Source of the DNA: Alphaproteobacteria bacterium
GTDB lineage: Bacteria > Pseudomonadota > Alphaproteobacteria > UBA2966 > CAIVPW01
Reading direction: 5' to 3'
Length of the DNA stretch: 64,000 nucleotides
NCBI GenBank assembly: GCA_016869235.1
Contig: VGER01000001.1
Location: 54,596-118,595 of the forward strand
Numbering within the stretch: the stretch's first letter is position 1; the number at the start of each line of letters is the position of its first letter. Below are positions 27,001 through 33,000 of the stretch, piece after piece. The position numbers are program-made.

Positions 27001-30000
27001 GCCGCTTCGACAGCGGGGTGCGCGTGGGTGCCTGGGCCACCTTCACCAACGTAACGGCACAGCAGTTCGGCGAGGGCAGTTTCGACAAGGGATTCTTCAT
27101 CGTCATCCCGTTCGAGCTGTTCCTCACGCGGTCGAGCGCCGCAACCGGCGTCTTCGCGTTTCGTCCCCTCACACGCGACGGCGGCCAGAGGCTTTCGTTG
27201 GCCAACCGCCTATACGATCTCACCGCCCAGGGAAACCTCGGCTCGATCGGGCGCGGCTGGGCGGAGGTCATGCGGTAAGGCGCGGCTTCGTCACCGCTGC
27301 GGCCAAGGCTCCCAGGTACCGGTGCCCTTGACAGGCCCGCCCGAAAACCGCTCTCTTGCCCGCCGGCCCGGCTCCCGGCGGGCCAAGAAATCGGCCATTT
27401 CAAAGGTCCATGAACGCTCTCGACGCTCTGGAGAGCCAGAGCATCTACATTTTCCGCGAGGCCTTTAACCGCATCGGCAAGCTCGCGATGTTGTGGTCAT
27501 TGGGGAAGGACTCCAACGTCATGATCTGGCTCGCCCGCAAGGCGTTCCTGGGTCACGTGCCGTTCCCGCTCCTCCACATCGATACCGGCAAGAAGTTTCC
27601 GGAGATGTACGAGTTCCGCGACCGCTACGAGAAGGAATGGGCGGTTACCCTTATCCGCGGCACGTGCCCGCCGGTGGAGGAGATGGATCCTTCGCTGCCG
27701 CCCGCCGCGCGCTCCGCTGCGCGCAAGACCGCCGGCCTGAAGCGTATGGTCGAGGAGCGCGGCTTCGAGGGCCTGTTCGCCGGCATCCGCCGCGACGAGG
27801 AGGGCACGCGCGCCAAGGAGCGCTACTTCTCGCCGCGCGGCATCGACGGCAAGTGGGACGTGCGCGACCAGCCGCCCGAGTTCTGGGGACAATTCAACAC
27901 CGACTTCCCGCCGGGCACGCACATCCGCGTGCATCCCTTGCTGCATTGGACCGAGATCGACATCTGGCGCTACACCGAGCGCGAGAATATCCCGACGATC
28001 CCGCTCTACTTCTCCAAGAACGGCAAGCGCTACCGCTCGCTCGGCGACAAGGACATCACCTTCCCGGTCGACTCCAAGGCGAGCTCGATCGCCGAGATCA
28101 TCCAGGAGCTGCAGACCACCAAGGTCGCCGAGCGCGCCGGACGCGCCATGGATCACGAAGCGGAGGACGCCTTTGAGCGCCTGCGCGCCGACGGATACCT
28201 CTGAGATGGCAACGTCCGCAACGAGCGCCTCCCGCGAAAGCCTGCGCGTCGCCGTCGTCGGTCATGTCGATCACGGCAAGTCCACGCTCGTCGGCCGCCT
28301 GCTGCACGACACCGGCAGCCTGCCGCAAGGCAAGGTTGAGGCCATTCGCGCCATGTCCGAGCGGCGCGGCATGCCGTTCGAATGGGCGTTCCTCATGGAC
28401 GCGCTGCAGGCGGAGCGCGACCAAGGCATCACCATCGACACGTCGCAGATCTGGTTCAAGACGCCGAAGCGCGACTACGTCATCATCGACGCACCCGGCC
28501 ACAAGGAATTCCTCAAGAACATGATTACCGGCGCGGCCGCCTCCGACGCGGCGCTCCTGGTGATCGATGCCGACGAGGGTGTGAAGGAGCAATCGCGCCG
28601 TCACGGGTACCTCTTGCACCTGTTGGGCGTGCGCCAAGTGGCCGTCGCCGTCAACAAGATGGACTTGGTCGGCTACAGCGAGAAACGCTTCGCCGCCATC
28701 GAGAAAGAGTACCGCGCGTACCTCGCGAGCATCGGCGTGACGCCGACCTACATCATCCCGATCGGCGCGCGCGACGGCCAGAACATCGTCGGTAAGGCCG
28801 ACAAAATGGCCTGGCACGGCGGGCCGCACGTCCTGGAAGCTCTCGAGCGCTTCAACGTCGTGACACTGCCGACGCACCTGCCGCTGCGCATGCCAGTGCA
28901 GGACGTGTACAAGTTCGATGATCGCCGCATCATCGCCGGCCGTATCGAGAGCGGCATGCTCAAGGTCGGCGATCGCATCGTGTTCTCGCCCTCTAACAAG
29001 TCGGTACGGGTGAAGACCATTGAGGCGTGGGCTGCGCCACCGCCGGACCGCGCGAGCGCTGGCCAGTCCGTCGGCTTTACGGTGGATGAGCAGATCTTTG
29101 TCGAGCGCGGAGAGATCGTCAGCCATGAGGCGAATCCGCCGGTCGAAACCGACGTTTTCCGAGCGCGCCTTTTCTGGCTCGGCAGAACGCCCCTGACCCA
29201 AGCTGCGCGCTACAAGCTGAAGCTTTGCGCCGCGGCAGCCAATGTCCGTGTGCAGGCGATCGAGCGCGTCATCGACACAGGGGATTTGTCGAGCGCCGCC
29301 GCGACAGAAGTGAAGCACTCCGCTGTGGCGGAGGTGATCCTGCAGGCCGATCGCATGCTGGCGCTCGATGAGTTCGTTAACTCGCCGCTTACCGGCCGCT
29401 TCGTGCTGGTGGACGGCTACGACATCGCCGGCGGCGGCATAGTCTCGATGGAGGGATACGCCGATCAGCGCCACCTGATCACGGTGCGTGCCTCTAACAT
29501 CACCCGCGTCGAGCATGCTGTATCAGTTGATGCCCGGGCGCGGCGCAACGGGCACCAGGGTGGAGTCATCTGGCTCACGGGCCTGTCTGGTTCCGGCAAG
29601 TCGACACTGTCGATCACCGCCGAGCGCCGGCTTTTCAACATGGGCTACCAAGTCTACGTGCTGGACGGCGACAATATGCGCCATGGGCTCAATTCAGACC
29701 TTGGCTTCTCGCCGGACGAGCGAGCCGAGAACATTCGCCGGGTCGGCGAGGTTGCGGCGCTGATGGCGCGGGCTGGCGTCGTAGTTATCACGGCATTTAT
29801 CTCGCCCTACCGATCTGACCGCGAGCGAGCGCGCAGGGCCGCAGGCGGCAACTTCCATGAGGTTTACGTGCAGGCCGACCTCGCAACCTGCGAGGCGCGG
29901 GATCCGAAGGGCCTCTATCGCAAGGCGCGCGCCGGCGAGATCGCCGAGTTCACGGGAATCTCTGCGCCCTACGAGGAACCGCAGTCTCCCGAACTCGCAC

Positions 30001-33000
30001 TCGATACGACGAGGCTCTCCATCGAGAGCGCTGTCGACGTACTTGTTGGCTACGTAAGCGAGCGGTTCGGCGTCGAACAGGTGCGCCTGACCCGCAAGGC
30101 CGGCGCGTGATTTCCTAGCGGGCTGCGAGAGCGCCGTCCTTGGGCACGGTAATGCCGCTCTTCGCCAACTCGCGCTCGAGCGTCGCTCGTATGCGCGCCA
30201 ACGTCTTTTCGTCCTTGCCCTCCGCGCGCCACCAGCGCCGCCTGGGTGTTGGACGCGCGGACCAGCCACCACCCGTCGTCGGTTTTCACGCGTACTCCGT
30301 CCACGTCGATGACGTCCGCCCCGGCAGAACGCATGCGATTGCGCAGCTCTTCCACGATGGCAAACTTGCGCTCCTCGGCGCAGAACAGGCGAAGCTCTGG
30401 GGTGTTGGGCAACTGCTCCAGCGAAGCGACAAGCTGCGCTGGCGTCTGCTCATTCCGCGCGAGCATGCCGAGGCAACGAACCGCGGCATAGATGGCGTCG
30501 TCGAAGCCGAAGTAGTGATCTGCGAACAGTCTTCTCACCGCCGCCTTCCCGGACAACGACGGTTCCGAAGGCGCGGCCAATGGCGAGGGCGTCCTCCGCA
30601 CGGATCGTCAGACCGACGATGCCGCGAATATCGTAATCGCGCGGGATTGTTGGATGAAATCGATGGGACTGCACGGTGCAAGTATAGTATTGGCACGCGG
30701 CGGGCCAACGCGACAGCGTCAACGCGCCACGGCGACCGCGATGACGTGACGGCTCGGTGCATGGCCTCGAAGGATCAACAGATGAGCACCTCTTTACGTG
30801 CGGCTCAGCCGGCCACGACGATCGCGCGTGGCAAGCGTCTGCTGTTCGTCATCAACGAGGCATTCTTTCTGCTTTCGCACCGGCGCGCGGTTGTGCGCGC
30901 GGCGCAAGAGGCGGGGTTCGAGGTTCATGTCGCAGCGCCCTCGCACCACGCCTGGGCACCCGAAGGGTTCGACCTGAGCGACCTGCCAGGGCAGGGTCTC
31001 GCAGTCCACGTGATCCCGTTGTCGCGGCGCGGTCGCAACCCCATCGCCGACGCGCGGACCTTCACGGCCCTGTTCAGCCTCTATCGCCGCCTGCGTCCCG
31101 ACGTGGTGCATCACATCACCGTCAAGCCCAACCTCTACGGCGGCTTGGCGGCGCGGCTGGCCGGTGTTCCTGCGGTGGTCTACGCCGTGTCAGGCCTTGG
31201 CGAACTGTTCAGTGGGCGCGGTCTCGGCTTGACCATGCTGAGGCCATTCCTGCTGCGCGGGCTTAGTTCGGCATTCCGCCATTCCAACGCTAGCATCATT
31301 GTGCAGAACCCTGAAGATGGCCGCGCGCTCTCGGCTGCACTCCGCCTGTCGGAAGCCGAACTTGTCCTGATCCGCGGCTCGGGCGTCGACTTGTGCAGTT
31401 ATCGCGTCCAGCCTGAGCCAAGCGGTGTACCGGTGGTCGTGCTGGCTGCCCGATTGATCTGGGATAAGGGCATCCGAGAGTTTGTCACGGCCTCACGCGC
31501 GTTGAAGGCGCAGGGCCTCAACGCTCGATTCGTGCTGGTCGGCGGTGCCCACGCCAGCAATCCTCGCACGGTCCCGGCAGACACCCTCCGGGCTTGGGAG
31601 AAGGAGGGCCTCGTCGAGTGGTGGGGTTACCGCACCGACATGCCTGCAGTGCTCGCTGGTGCGAACATCGTCTGCCTGCCGTCGTCGTACGGTGAGGGGG
31701 TACCCAAGGTCCTGCTCGAAGCGGCGGCGAGTGGACGTGCCGTCGTCGCCACTGACATCGCCGGCTGTCGCGAGGCGGTGGTATCGGGCGAGACGGGCAT
31801 GCTCGTTCCGGTCGGCGACGCCCCCGCTCTGGCTCAAGCTATCCGCGAGCTCCTGGCCGCCCCCGACACTCGCAGAGCCATGGGTCTGTGTGCACGGCGG
31901 CGGGTTGAGGCGGAGTTCGATGAGCGGGACGTCGCGAGCCGTACCCTTGCCGTGTACAATGAGCTGCTCGAGCGGCGGGGGCCGCAGGGTCAGGCAGCCG
32001 AAAAGCATAGGTAATGGAATCTCCAAGCGTAGACTCTCACACGCAGCTGCGTGACTTGCATAACGAACGCACACTGCGCTTGGTGCCTGCAACCACCGCG
32101 ACAGATGATGTCATCGACCTCACCCACCTGTTCCGGATCTGGGTGAAGTGGATTTGGTTGCCTATCCTGGCCGGTGGAATCGGCGCGTGGTTTGGCTACC
32201 AGTCGCTGCAGTCGTTCGTGCCGGAGTCGGTCGCGAAGATGATCGTCGTGCCCGCGGCCAGCACGAGCGGCGGAGCCTCCTTGCCGATGACGGGCGGATT
32301 GGGGGCCGCGGCCTCGGCATTTGGAATCCAGATCGGCGGGGCTGAGCCGTCCGTTTCCTCGTTCGACCGCTTCAAGATGATTCTCACTTCCATGCAGCTC
32401 GCGCAGCGCATGCAAGAGAAATACGGCTTGATGCAGAAGATCTGGGCGACGAGTTGGGATTCCAACACGCTGCGATGGGTGCGTCCATCCGGCGAGGACT
32501 TCGAGCGCGAGGAGCGCCGCCGGGCAATGCTGCGCCAGAATCTCTGGACGGCGCCGAACTTGGAGACGCTGGCCGCGTATATCGGTGGCAAGGTCAAGGT
32601 CGAGCCCGCCAAGGCGCAGGGCTTTTACGAGCTGAGTGTGCAGCATAGAGACGGCAACGAGGCTCTGTGGCTGCTCAACACGACATTCGCGGAGGCTGAT
32701 GCCCTCCTGCGCGAGGCGGATCGCGAGCAGTCATTAGAGCGCCGGCGATTCATCGAGCGGCAGATGGAGAGCCGCACGATGCTCTACATGCAGGAGACAC
32801 TACGCGCCTTGCTTACACAGGCACTGAACAAGGAAATCACCCTTGAGGCGCAGGTGAGCTATGTTGGGACCGTCGTCGAGCCGGCCCATATCATGAACGC
32901 CAAGACCGAGCCGAACCTGCAGCTCATCTTCGGCCTGCCGATTGCCGGCTGGGCTGGAGGGGCATTCCTGCTGATTACGCTGGTTGCCGTCATTCGCGGC

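Follow-up and report, generated by a model that had tools for sequence, protein, structure and literature searches.

A most likely general sulfate-activation operon, cysD-cysNC, embedded in an alphaproteobacterial capsule locus that encodes a PAPS-type sulfotransferase

A surface-polysaccharide locus of more than 50 kb, contained in part in the 64-kb window of DNA from an alphaproteobacterial MAG analyzed here, encodes the small subunit of ATP sulfurylase (cysD), a cysN-cysC fusion (cysNC) and a PAPS-type sulfotransferase. We conclude that the cysD-cysNC pair is most likely the general sulfate-activation operon of the cell, embedded and retained in the capsule locus in its clade. Vertically inherited, it would provide PAPS to the sulfotransferase for sulfation of the polymer, and possibly serve assimilation too; we assign this reading a probability of about 0.6.

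Genome organization

The locus extends more than 10 kb beyond the window end. For export it has a gfc/yjb-type module and an ABC exporter, and it further encodes a Wzy-like membrane protein, two nonulosonic-acid pathways, and carbamoyl-, acetyl-, methyl- and amido-transferases. The preliminary description placed cysD and cysNC between the export module and the biosynthesis genes, and this holds: both genes are intact and have YjbF/Wza-GfcC/YjbH on one side and the glycosyltransferase genes on the other. Directly 5' of cysD are the YjbF-like gene, the Wza-SLBB-GfcC fusion and YjbH; 3' of cysNC follow a GT4 glycosyltransferase, the Wzy-like membrane protein, a carbamoyltransferase and further genes.

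20873..21376, minus strand: YjbF/GfcB-like lipoprotein gene of the export module (Pfam YjbF, 7.8e-38)
21453..24401, plus strand: 982-aa fusion of a Wza-like outer-membrane polysaccharide export protein with GfcC-like domains (Pfam Poly_export, SLBB x5, SLBB_2, Caps_syn_GfcC_N, Caps_syn_GfcC_C)
24438..27278, plus strand: YjbH/GfcD-like outer-membrane protein (Pfam YjbH, 7.1e-206)
27410..28204, plus strand: cysD, ATP sulfurylase small subunit, short 264-aa variant (Pfam PAPS_reduct, 2.6e-35)
28206..30110, plus strand: cysN-cysC fusion, 634 aa, with the GTPase subunit at about 28206-29480 and the APS kinase domain at about 29480-30110
30224..30674, minus strand: phosphomannomutase/phosphoglucomutase (PMM) gene remnant with an internal deletion and a frameshift (Pfam PGM_PMM_IV, 9e-8)
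30782..32014, plus strand: GT4 glycosyltransferase, the first such gene in the biosynthesis region (Pfam families Glycos_transf_1 and Glyco_trans_4)

On an identical metagenome contig (L001), a 167-aa gene is called at the position of the YjbF/GfcB-like gene, and the start given for the GT4 gene is that of the L001 gene call. The Wza-GfcC fusion and the first GT4 both have counterparts in the related locus L005 (51% and 60% identity, respectively). An intact 466-aa PMM is encoded 3' of cysNC in L015, and tblastn with this protein matches the remnant only over residues 1-45 and 315-434, in two frames. The remnant is the boundary between a conserved flank and a variable biosynthesis region.

Sulfate-activation genes

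The cysD gene starts with ATG at 27410 and its stop codon ends at 28204; the ATG of cysNC at 28206 lies 1 nt beyond, and the pair is translationally coupled. CysD scores 342 bits against NCBIfam PRK05253 (cutoff 195), matches the CysD chain 1ZUN_A at 1.7e-61 and carries the PP-loop SLGKDS (27497-27514). CysNC contains the Pfam domains GTP_EFTU (4.9e-45) and APS_kinase (2.4e-65) and scores 358 bits against TIGR02034 CysN (cutoff 336). Its CysN part matches 1ZUN_B at 4.2e-83, and the CysN match scarcely exceeds that of archaeal EF-1alpha (283 vs 279.5 bits). The GTPase motifs are G1 GHVDHGKST (28260-28286), DAPGH (28488-28502) and NKMD (28653-28664), and the APS-kinase motifs include the P-loop (29580-29606), a ten-residue motif (29661-29690) and FISPYR (29796-29813). 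Compared with E. coli CysN and CysC, the G1, G3 and G4 motifs and the APS-kinase motifs, DPKGLY among them, are all intact, with 53% identity between the kinase domain and E. coli CysC. The protein is named only "adenylyl-sulfate kinase" at NCBI because, at 621 bits, it does not reach the 715 bits that NCBIfam requires for the bifunctional family. The domain set and catalytic motifs are those of the P. syringae CysD-CysN complex (PDB 1ZUN) and of E. coli CysD/CysN/CysC, from which the present CysD differs in lacking about 30 residues (1ZUN_A 232-263).

Together, cysD and cysNC constitute an intact and, as judged from their motifs, functional-looking line from sulfate to APS to PAPS, in which a GTP-driven ATP sulfurylase and an APS kinase would act in succession. 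Only one APS-kinase gene is present in the window and the adjoining 10 kb, and cysD is the sole PAPS_reduct-family gene found. Neither cysQ nor a sulfate permease accompanies the pair.

Sulfotransferase and its nonulosonic-acid operon

The only sulfotransferase gene in the window and the next 10 kb is translationally coupled within an operon for nonulosonic-acid synthesis. It is not co-transcribed with cysDNC, because it lies 16 kb away, past a block of oppositely oriented genes.

43862..44596, plus strand: Antibiotic_NAT-fold N-acyltransferase-like gene, first of the sulfotransferase operon (Pfam Antibiotic_NAT, 2.2e-39)
44593..46104, plus strand: AMP-binding (adenylating) enzyme (Pfam AMP-binding, 1.6e-62)
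46104..46370, plus strand: 88-aa phosphopantetheine carrier protein with the sequence GVLDSFGF (Pfam PP-binding, 24.1 bits, cutoff 20.8)
46372..47490, plus strand: PAPS-type sulfotransferase, 372 aa, GTG start (Pfam Sulfotransfer_3, 2.4e-13)
47498-48526, plus strand: PseB/Polysacc_synt_2-like dehydratase (Pfam), first of the nonulosonic-acid genes at 47498..51771
48477-49874, plus strand: DUF4910 gene (Pfam)
49871-50707, plus strand: RmlD-like reductase (Pfam)
50704-51771, plus strand: NeuB-type synthase (Pfam)

Gene borders within 47498..51771 overlap or are 1-7 nt apart. The carrier protein gene was absent from the preliminary description and has homologous small open reading frames in L094 and L004; the Antibiotic_NAT-like gene is likewise found with the sulfotransferase in L004, L094 and the P0008 locus. 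A sulfotransferase start at the ATG of the long open reading frame (46117) was rejected, as this stretch codes for the carrier protein in another frame.

The sulfotransferase had been described with a 5'-PSB motif SGTYRSGTT and a 3'-PB motif RDPRAVLAS, and both were confirmed (46411-46437 and 46918-46944, respectively). They line up with the motifs by which tyrosylprotein sulfotransferase (TPST) binds PAPS, and all family members share residues R18, G20, R183-R186 and S191. An AlphaFold model (pLDDT 84.6) has the sulfotransferase fold, and its top PDB matches are all PAPS-dependent sulfotransferases. The protein thus shares its fold, its Arg-type 5'-PSB (RSGTT) and its RDPxxxxxS 3'-PB motif with Sulfotransfer_3 proteins, TPST and the CurM sulfotransferase domain, but is at most 18% identical to any solved structure. 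Its own family is small (12 matches), twice fused to a methyltransferase and found only inside nonulosonic-acid gene sets.

We propose that the sulfotransferase spends the PAPS made by CysD and CysNC, and that the sulfate would be placed on the nonulosonic-acid-containing polymer or on its precursor. Since PAPS genes and a sulfotransferase occur in one polysaccharide cluster, the polymer is probably sulfated. An alternative modeled on the sulfotransferase domains of CurM and olefin synthase (OLS) is that sulfate serves as a leaving group, with the enzyme acting on a carrier-held acyl hydroxyl or a sugar intermediate, so that PAPS is used and the polymer stays unsulfated. The sulfotransferase does lie directly 3' of the adenylating enzyme and carrier, in the order N-acyltransferase-like protein, adenylating enzyme, carrier, sulfotransferase with overlapping or 1-nt junctions, and the CurM and OLS domains rank 5 and 15 among its structural matches. 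However, tyrosylprotein sulfotransferases match as well or better, no thioesterase or decarboxylase partner was seen, and the family members in L003, L095 and the P0011 locus keep the nonulosonic-acid genes while lacking the adenylating enzyme and carrier. We regard a leaving-group role as improbable. That PAPS acts mainly as a metabolic signal switching on polysaccharide production is more improbable still: the pair is located inside the locus, and the brp exopolysaccharide locus of V. vulnificus is PAPS-induced with cysDNC co-regulated (PMC6113621), but the locus encodes a sulfotransferase with intact cofactor motifs, which would give PAPS a direct use, Pfam annotation found no regulator or c-di-GMP gene in the locus, and most orthologs of the pair lie away from polysaccharide genes.

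Lineage of cysD-cysNC and the question of a dedicated role

The preliminary description regarded the pair as dedicated, NodPQ-like genes supplying PAPS for glycan sulfation rather than assimilation. On this reading, they would be an extra copy, and a separate housekeeping cysDN/cysH would feed cysteine synthesis. The position between the export and biosynthesis modules is conserved and favors such a role, as does the intact APS-kinase domain, given the reported preference of rhizobial CysH for APS (PMC6192434). No adjacent cysH had been noted, and tblastn bore this out, detecting no cysH, cysI or cysJ homolog in the window or the next 10 kb (74 kb in all); also in favor, cysH does not occur within 10 kb of the pair in any of 80 orthologous loci. 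That cysH is not adjacent says little, however, since cysDNC and cysJIH are about 11 kb apart in E. coli as well.

Evidence from relatives points the other way. The pair belongs to an alphaproteobacterial lineage, marked by its short CysD and its CysN, that is represented in more than 120 protein clusters and 80 GTDB species (64-87% identity). In most of these species it forms an operon of its own amid housekeeping synteny, as in Parvibaculum (cysD-cysNC-galE-glmU-glmS); such orthologs, at 64-75% identity, occur in Minwuia, Parvibaculum and many MAGs. A motif search of the sequence within 10 kb of each of the 80 orthologs revealed no sulfotransferase. Against this, sugar or polysaccharide genes adjoin several of them: galE-glmU-glmS, MBOAT and GT2 genes (L014, L017) or UDP-glucose dehydrogenase (L007). 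In a neighbor-joining tree of CysNC, which looks vertical, the window copy and those of L015, L005 and L013 (capsule-linked) constitute a single clade, which branches within the copies from housekeeping synteny. The pair therefore looks like a vertically inherited member of this lineage, orthologous to a near-universal single operon, and for this reason is most likely a general sulfate-activation operon.

The lineage can, by its gene neighborhoods, be assimilatory. One ortholog (L079) lies 0.7 kb from sulfite reductase, and a Niveispirillum relative (50% identity), whose CysD shares the deletion of about 30 residues in an alignment, belongs to a cysG-cysI-cysH-cysD-cysNC operon, the CysH of which bears an APS-reductase signature. 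Occurrence in a cysI-cysH operon despite the CysC fusion means that neither the fusion nor the lack of a nearby cysH is proof of dedication. A relative on a Skermanella plasmid (60% identity, CysD comparably short at 265 aa) has a sulfotransferase and glycosyltransferases as neighbors, a context that fits a lineage specialized for glycan sulfation.

Linkage of cysDNC to the capsule locus is conserved within the clade. The order YjbH-cysD-cysNC recurs in L005 and L013, and a single syntenic locus on Contig_29 (L005 and L003) contains a cysNC of 73% identity and a sulfotransferase homolog of 42% identity, spaced 20.6 kb apart as against 16.3 kb here. In L015 (87% identical), the genes 3' of cysNC are unrelated to those in the window, and cysDNC is therefore part of the conserved flank on the export side, without obvious co-variation with the sulfotransferase. 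In assembly CAYFPL01, the sulfotransferase-nonulosonic-acid locus and an orthologous cysDNC are on separate contigs, and so the family works with unlinked cysDNC.

The preliminary description thus held up as to the PAPS line, the sulfotransferase and their linkage, and glycan sulfation remains probable; the NodPQ-like part was not supported, and "dedicated" is unproven. An extra copy devoted to sulfation is, in our estimate, doubtful without being far-fetched. The pair may instead be the only sulfate-activation operon of the cell, used for sulfation and possibly, through APS, for assimilation.

Comparison with known systems

In rhizobia, which are Alphaproteobacteria too, NodP (a CysD homolog) and NodQ (CysN fused to APS kinase) provide the PAPS used by a carbohydrate sulfotransferase (PMC6192434). 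NodPQ systems work with NodH or other sulfotransferases, on Nod factor and LPS in S. meliloti, and M. loti has nodPQ-dependent sulfated surface polysaccharides. The pair is not NodPQ-like in ancestry, nor a NodPQ-type accessory duplicate: CysD and CysNC are only 37% and 40% identical to the S. meliloti plasmid NodP/NodQ-type proteins, in which G1 is GSVDDGKST instead of GHVDHGKST and the small subunit has 297 rather than 264 aa. The NodPQ genes are accessory copies carried on plasmids, and on the L096 plasmid a sulfotransferase gene immediately follows the pair, whereas the present pair is chromosomal, vertical-looking and widespread.

In Xanthomonas, raxPQ is a shared sulfate-activation operon serving assimilation and sulfation. 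Likewise, M. tuberculosis cysD-cysNC is described as feeding the reductive branch with APS and sulfotransferases with PAPS (PMC4373884). A single cysD and cysNC for both uses is the model that most likely applies here, by analogy; in those species the operons are outside a polysaccharide locus and dual use is demonstrated, whereas here it is inferred.

The closest parallels in gene arrangement are Vibrio sp. KMM 8419 and Cobetia marina KMM 1449, in which PAPS genes and sulfotransferases accompany sulfated capsules proven chemically (PMC11641403, PMC11766843). In both, the capsule cluster comprises 70-80 genes and includes cysD and cysN/cysC (bifunctional in Cobetia), close to export genes or between them, with sulfotransferase genes at another place in the same cluster. 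Both differ in being Gammaproteobacteria with kps-type rather than gfc/yjb-type export and in the CysD/CysN lineage. The Vibrio cysC, cysN and cysD are explicitly second copies, a precedent for a dedicated set, and those of Cobetia are accompanied by cysQ and a sulfate permease, both missing here.

Conclusions

Sulfated capsules had been called uncommon, which is fair, although PAPS genes with sulfotransferases have been published as a hallmark of such capsules; their occurrence in capsule clusters is already documented for Vibrio, Cobetia and rhizobia. What is more original is the invariable location of this sulfotransferase family within nonulosonic-acid operons.

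Organization of the polysaccharide locus

The window (G+C ~65%) opens with 20 kb of chromosomal core genes encoding SMC, a DsbA-like protein, MutY, a CcrM-type methyltransferase, RNase HII, MoaB and a lytic transglycosylase. A surface-polysaccharide locus occupies the rest, starting at ~20.9 kb. An identical metagenome contig (L010) carries the locus past the window end for no less than 10 kb, a stretch that encodes an acetyltransferase, a DegT aminotransferase, two CMP-sugar synthetases, a GT2, a second NeuB and a PIG-L deacetylase. This one contiguous locus contains PAPS-synthesis genes, a sulfotransferase gene, glycosyltransferases and export genes, the combination set out for sulfated-capsule gene clusters (PAPS genes, sulfotransferase and assembly/export in one locus) in PMC11641403. 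Identical CysNC and sulfotransferase proteins are found in an NCBI MAG labeled "Alphaproteobacteria bacterium" and in lake metagenomes; the organism is uncultured.

Features of the locus discussed below (window coordinates, strand where assigned, description).
21453-24401 (+): Wza-type export protein fused to GfcC-like domains, 982 aa; the syntenic locus L005 keeps the same fusion (1000 aa)
30224-30674 (-): phosphomannomutase/phosphoglucomutase pseudogene remnant, residues 1-45 and 315-434 of the intact homolog in L015, in two frames
34215-36650 (+): SxtJ-like membrane protein, small DUF5989 ORF and SxtI/NodU-type carbamoyltransferase
36658-37683: SGNH/AlgX-like gene, right after the preceding trio
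46104-46370 (+): phosphopantetheine carrier protein gene, 88 aa, with GVLDSFGF; Pfam PP-binding 24.1 bits
57089-59834 (+): MBOAT acyltransferase, then a 416-aa protein with no family match

The export genes form a group-4-capsule-like (gfc/yjb) set, with Pfam YjbF, Caps_syn_GfcC_N/C, YjbH and Poly_export+SLBB found together. No Wzc/Etk-type tyrosine autokinase or phosphatase domain was detected in a scan of selected ORFs along the window, a set that takes in all but a few small or low-scoring ones. Two ORFs without Pfam matches follow the first GT4 gene. The 333-aa product of 32014-33015, which has no NCBIfam match either, shows two hydrophobic stretches by eye and on that impression looks like a kinase-less co-polymerase, while 33037-34176, also by eye, looks like a multi-pass Wzy-like membrane protein. 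Both were considered as hidden sulfotransferases and ruled out, as they carry no PAPS motifs.

The locus is very elaborate and rich in nonulosonic-acid genes. Two NeuB-type synthases and two CMP-sugar synthetases are encoded (window 50704-51771 and, past the window end, L010 8721-11837), which suggests that two different nonulosonic acids may be made, either for a single polymer or for separate glycans; L003, a syntenic locus, likewise has two NeuB genes. The trio at 34215-36650 suggests a putative O-carbamoylation of the polymer, and the MBOAT gene and its neighbor may constitute an AlgI/AlgJ- or DltB/DltD-like O-acylation system. Two other loci (L014 and L017) likewise have MBOAT homologs near their orthologous cysDNC genes.

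The cysD and cysN-cysC genes

The product of cysD (27410-28204, 264 aa) was identified as CysD by Pfam, NCBIfam and a match to 1ZUN_A (1.7e-61). It scores 342 bits against the NCBIfam CysD model PRK05253 (cutoff 195) and 57 bits against the CysH model, and its PP-loop, SLGKDS, is encoded at 27497-27514. Scores fall under the cutoffs of the stricter equivalog PRK12563 (250 vs 413 bits) and subfamily TIGR02039 (245 vs 397 bits) models, and the protein therefore represents a divergent subfamily. The cysN-cysC gene (28206-30110, 634 aa) begins one base past the cysD stop and encodes a CysN GTPase with a complete C-terminal APS-kinase domain. The CysN part matches 1ZUN_B (4.2e-83), contains the GTPase motifs [14 protein letters not shown] and NKMD, and scores 358 bits against TIGR02034 (cutoff 336), with EF-1alpha models far under their own cutoffs. 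At 283 versus 279.5 bits, CysN scores just above archaeal EF-1alpha. The APS-kinase domain is recognized by Pfam APS_kinase (2.4e-65) and TIGR00455 (247 bits, cutoff 139), and its P-loop, DGDN, FISP(Y/H)R and KGLY motifs are all seen in alignment with E. coli CysC. The fusion falls under the NCBIfam cutoff for the bifunctional family and is therefore named only "adenylyl-sulfate kinase" in the database. All catalytic motifs compared with those of E. coli CysN and CysC are intact. The pair is a complete predicted enzyme set from sulfate through APS to PAPS.

A YjbF-like gene, the Wza-SLBB-GfcC fusion and YjbH lie upstream of the pair and the first GT4 gene lies downstream. The family and 1ZUN matches, the motifs and these neighbors bear out the preliminary description, which placed cysD and a CysN/CysC fusion between an export module and biosynthesis genes. 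Its report of no adjacent cysH also holds: tblastn with E. coli and alphaproteobacterial queries gave no match to CysH, CysI or CysJ in the window and its 10-kb extension. No regulatory RNA, such as a sulfur-responsive riboswitch upstream of cysD, was found by Rfam in the whole window. A consensus scan around the pair gave a single promoter-like site, which lies on the strand opposite to the genes, and no more terminator-like sites than chance would produce.

A PAPS-type sulfotransferase in a nonulosonic-acid operon

The gene at 46372-47490 had been predicted to encode a PAPS-dependent sulfotransferase carrying two motifs, and alignments and a structure prediction agree. The 5'-phosphosulfate-binding loop SGTYRSGTT (46411-46437) aligns with GMPRSGTTL of tick TPST, and the 3'-phosphate motif RDPRAVLAS (46918-46944) with RDGRAVVHS of the same enzyme. 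Across 12 homologs, R18 and G20 of the first motif are invariant and T21 nearly so; R183, D184, P185, R186 and S191 of the second are all invariant. The predicted structure (pLDDT 84.6, pTM 0.88) has as its top 27 PDB matches (E<=1e-3) only sulfotransferase-fold proteins crystallised with PAP/PAPS, including TPST1/2, CurM ST, OLS ST, Stf1 and Stf9, with sulfotransferase-like retinol dehydratase at rank 26. Modeled fold and motifs together demonstrate that the predicted protein is a PAPS-type sulfotransferase.

The sulfotransferase gene is the fourth of an operon whose junctions are overlapping or 1-7 nt long. It is preceded by genes for an Antibiotic_NAT-fold acyltransferase-like protein, an adenylating enzyme and the 88-aa PP-binding carrier protein, which had gone unnoticed before, and followed by those for a PseB-like dehydratase, DUF4910, an RmlD-like reductase, NeuB and a GT2. 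The carrier-protein gene starts in overlap with the adenylating-enzyme stop and ends 1 nt before the sulfotransferase GTG. An alternative sulfotransferase start, ATG 46117, was ruled out because its first 85 codons would run out-of-frame over the carrier-protein gene. Transient sulfation of a carrier-bound group, in the manner of CurM, is a minor alternative for the role of the enzyme.

The sulfotransferase family is small (12 database matches). All readable contexts (n=7, including L003, L004, L094, L095 and two JGI loci) are nonulosonic-acid gene sets, with NeuB, PseB-like dehydratases, CMP-sugar synthetases and DUF4910 or HisH/HisF-like genes, apart from a single 7.4-kb contig that does not extend as far as such genes. 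Two members are methyltransferase-sulfotransferase fusions of ~600 aa, and a third has a methyltransferase directly upstream. Judged by this neighborhood, the candidate acceptor is the nonulosonic acid or an N-acyl chain carried by it. A more specific proposal, to which we give low credence, is that a small undescribed sulfotransferase family dedicated to nonulosonic acids may O-sulfate the sugar, or a hydroxyacyl chain installed by the adenylating enzyme, carrier and N-acyltransferase-like protein, yielding a capsule with O-sulfated nonulosonic-acid residues. To our knowledge, O-sulfated nonulosonic acid has been described in animals and not in bacteria.

Lineage of the pair and comparison with NodP/NodQ

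The preliminary description regarded the pair as NodPQ-like and dedicated to glycan sulfation. The comparison with NodP/NodQ is not sustained. Window CysD and CysNC are 37% and 40% identical, respectively, to a S. meliloti plasmid pair (L096) that is followed by a sulfotransferase gene; plasmid NodQ/CysN-type matches in general are ~40% identical to window CysNC, compared with 60-87% inside its own lineage. Window CysD, at 264 aa, lacks ~30 residues of the small subunit, and the G1 motif of window CysN is GHVDHGKST, whereas canonical CysN/NodQ has GSVDDGKST. By sequence, the pair falls outside the NodP/NodQ (GSVDDGKST) clade. Its distribution is also not of the patchy, mobile or plasmid-borne kind tied to a sulfotransferase: the setting is chromosomal, core genes lie upstream, and orthologs share a housekeeping synteny, the exception being a Skermanella plasmid relative.

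The lineage is common, comprising more than 120 protein clusters at >=68% identity, and at 64-87% identity it reaches 80 GTDB species, chiefly from Parvibaculum, Minwuiaceae, Geminicoccaceae and unnamed Alphaproteobacteria. A distinct CysD/CysNC lineage, with a 264-aa CysD and a CysN bearing the EF-1alpha-like G1 motif GHVDHGKST, is widespread in Alphaproteobacteria. The CysNC tree looks vertical.

Among the 80 orthologous loci, a GalE-like epimerase gene lies near cysD-cysNC in 41 (L018, L025, L026, L035, L038 and ~35 more, mostly Parvibaculum and relatives), typically right after cysNC (median gap 37 nt), and GlmU and GlmS families follow the pair in 18 and 27, respectively. Upstream neighbors in this synteny, which is largely that of Parvibaculum, are tgt, queA and carbonic anhydrase. 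PAPS-synthesis and UDP-sugar genes (GalE, GlmU, GlmS) are recurrent neighbors. In Minwuia thermotolerans and one further genome, the pair is a stand-alone operon amid housekeeping genes. Within 10 kb of the pair, none of the 80 loci has cysH, and none has a sulfotransferase by a strict motif pattern that other sulfotransferase families could escape. One locus (L079) has a sulfite reductase 0.7 kb upstream.

Two more distant relatives occupy contrasting settings. On the Niveispirillum cyanobacteriorum chromid/1-Mb plasmid (L009 6348-13839), a 50%-identical relative with the same short CysD sits in an operon ordered cysG-cysI-DUF934-cysH-cysD-cysNC, in a stretch without annotation in its record. 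The CysH there has the CC...CxxC signature of (Fe-S) APS reductases, while CysN still carries the APS-kinase domain. The kinase fusion was accordingly ruled out as a sign of dedication, since an assimilation operon has it too. On Skermanella mucosa plasmid pSM-2 (L008 11594-16857), a 60%-identical cysD-cysNC neighbors a Sulfotransfer_3 gene, beta-helix proteins, GT1, glf and an ABC transporter; judged by gene content, it fits an accessory glycan module of PAPS genes plus sulfotransferase more clearly than the window does. The contexts in L079, Niveispirillum, Minwuia and Skermanella indicate that this cysD-cysNC type serves assimilatory, stand-alone and sulfation-linked settings.

A capsule-linked clade

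In a neighbor-joining tree, window CysNC groups with that of L015 (87% identical), and both then with L005 and L013 (73-75% identical); this clade is nested among copies with housekeeping synteny. YjbH is directly upstream of cysD in L005 and L013. L005 and L003 lie side by side on a single 144-kb contig, where the whole architecture repeats: export genes, cysD-cysNC, GT4, a Wzy-like gene and a carbamoyltransferase, then a GT4-AsnB-epimerase-GT4-methyltransferase block in the opposite orientation and a nonulosonic-acid operon whose sulfotransferase is 42% identical. The distance from cysNC to the sulfotransferase is 20.6 kb there and 16.3 kb in the window. Because the architecture recurs, the linkage of cysNC and sulfotransferase is old and has been kept in the clade. 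One further genome, assembly CAYFPL01, has the nonulosonic-acid locus with the sulfotransferase on one contig and the orthologous cysDNC on another.

Relative to the intact L015 gene, the phosphomannomutase remnant at 30224-30674 has lost ~270 codons and shifted frame; it marks a scar, left by deletion or recombination, that separates cysNC from the first glycosyltransferase. Genes past phosphomannomutase in L015 are unrelated to those of the window. The scar and the unrelated genes show that cysD-cysNC belongs to a conserved flank beside a region of variable content.

Proposed function and significance

We conclude that cysD-cysNC is probably (at roughly 60%) a general sulfate-activation operon physically embedded in a capsule locus, used for sulfation and possibly also for assimilation. 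This reading is the most likely because cysD-cysNC has the appearance of a core operon passed on vertically, and some relatives have operons of its type that are assimilatory. CysD and CysNC would convert sulfate to APS and PAPS, the sulfotransferase would draw on that PAPS, and the polymer or a precursor would be sulfated, with the same operon possibly also feeding assimilation through APS. Xanthomonas raxPQ, to which we liken the operon, serves both ends in this way. A comparable dual operon in M. tuberculosis is described in PMC4373884.

That the pair is a dedicated copy, as the preliminary description held, is a less likely reading. The part of that view concerning PAPS for glycan sulfation is favored by the intact PAPS set and PAPS-type sulfotransferase in one conserved locus; the NodPQ-like type does not stand. 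PAPS acting as a signal for polysaccharide production, for which V. vulnificus provides a precedent (PMC6113621), is a minor alternative.

PAPS genes with a sulfotransferase in a capsule cluster are an already known arrangement. In Vibrio sp. KMM 8419 and Cobetia marina KMM 1449, such genes lie inside the clusters of capsules proven by NMR to be sulfated, and the authors term them a hallmark (PMC11641403, PMC11766843); nodPQ-dependent sulfated surface polysaccharides of rhizobia, M. loti among them, are long known (PMC6192434). Unlike these published cases, the window has another export system, another CysD/CysN lineage and a nonulosonic-acid-associated sulfotransferase, whose context is the most original part.

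As a practical caution, cysD and cysN-cysC in a polysaccharide locus with no cysH nearby are insufficient for calling a dedicated NodPQ-like system; here such a pair looks like the usual operon of its lineage. For specialists, the sulfotransferase family found only with nonulosonic-acid genes is the more useful lead, since it gives a concrete and testable way towards a sugar modification that may be new. In the environment, extracellular polymers hold both nonulosonic acids and sulfate, and the enzymes responsible have not yet been identified (PMC10483923). If the polymer is sulfated, a freshwater alphaproteobacterial lineage would join the few bacteria with sulfated capsules, polymers of ecological and biotechnological interest.
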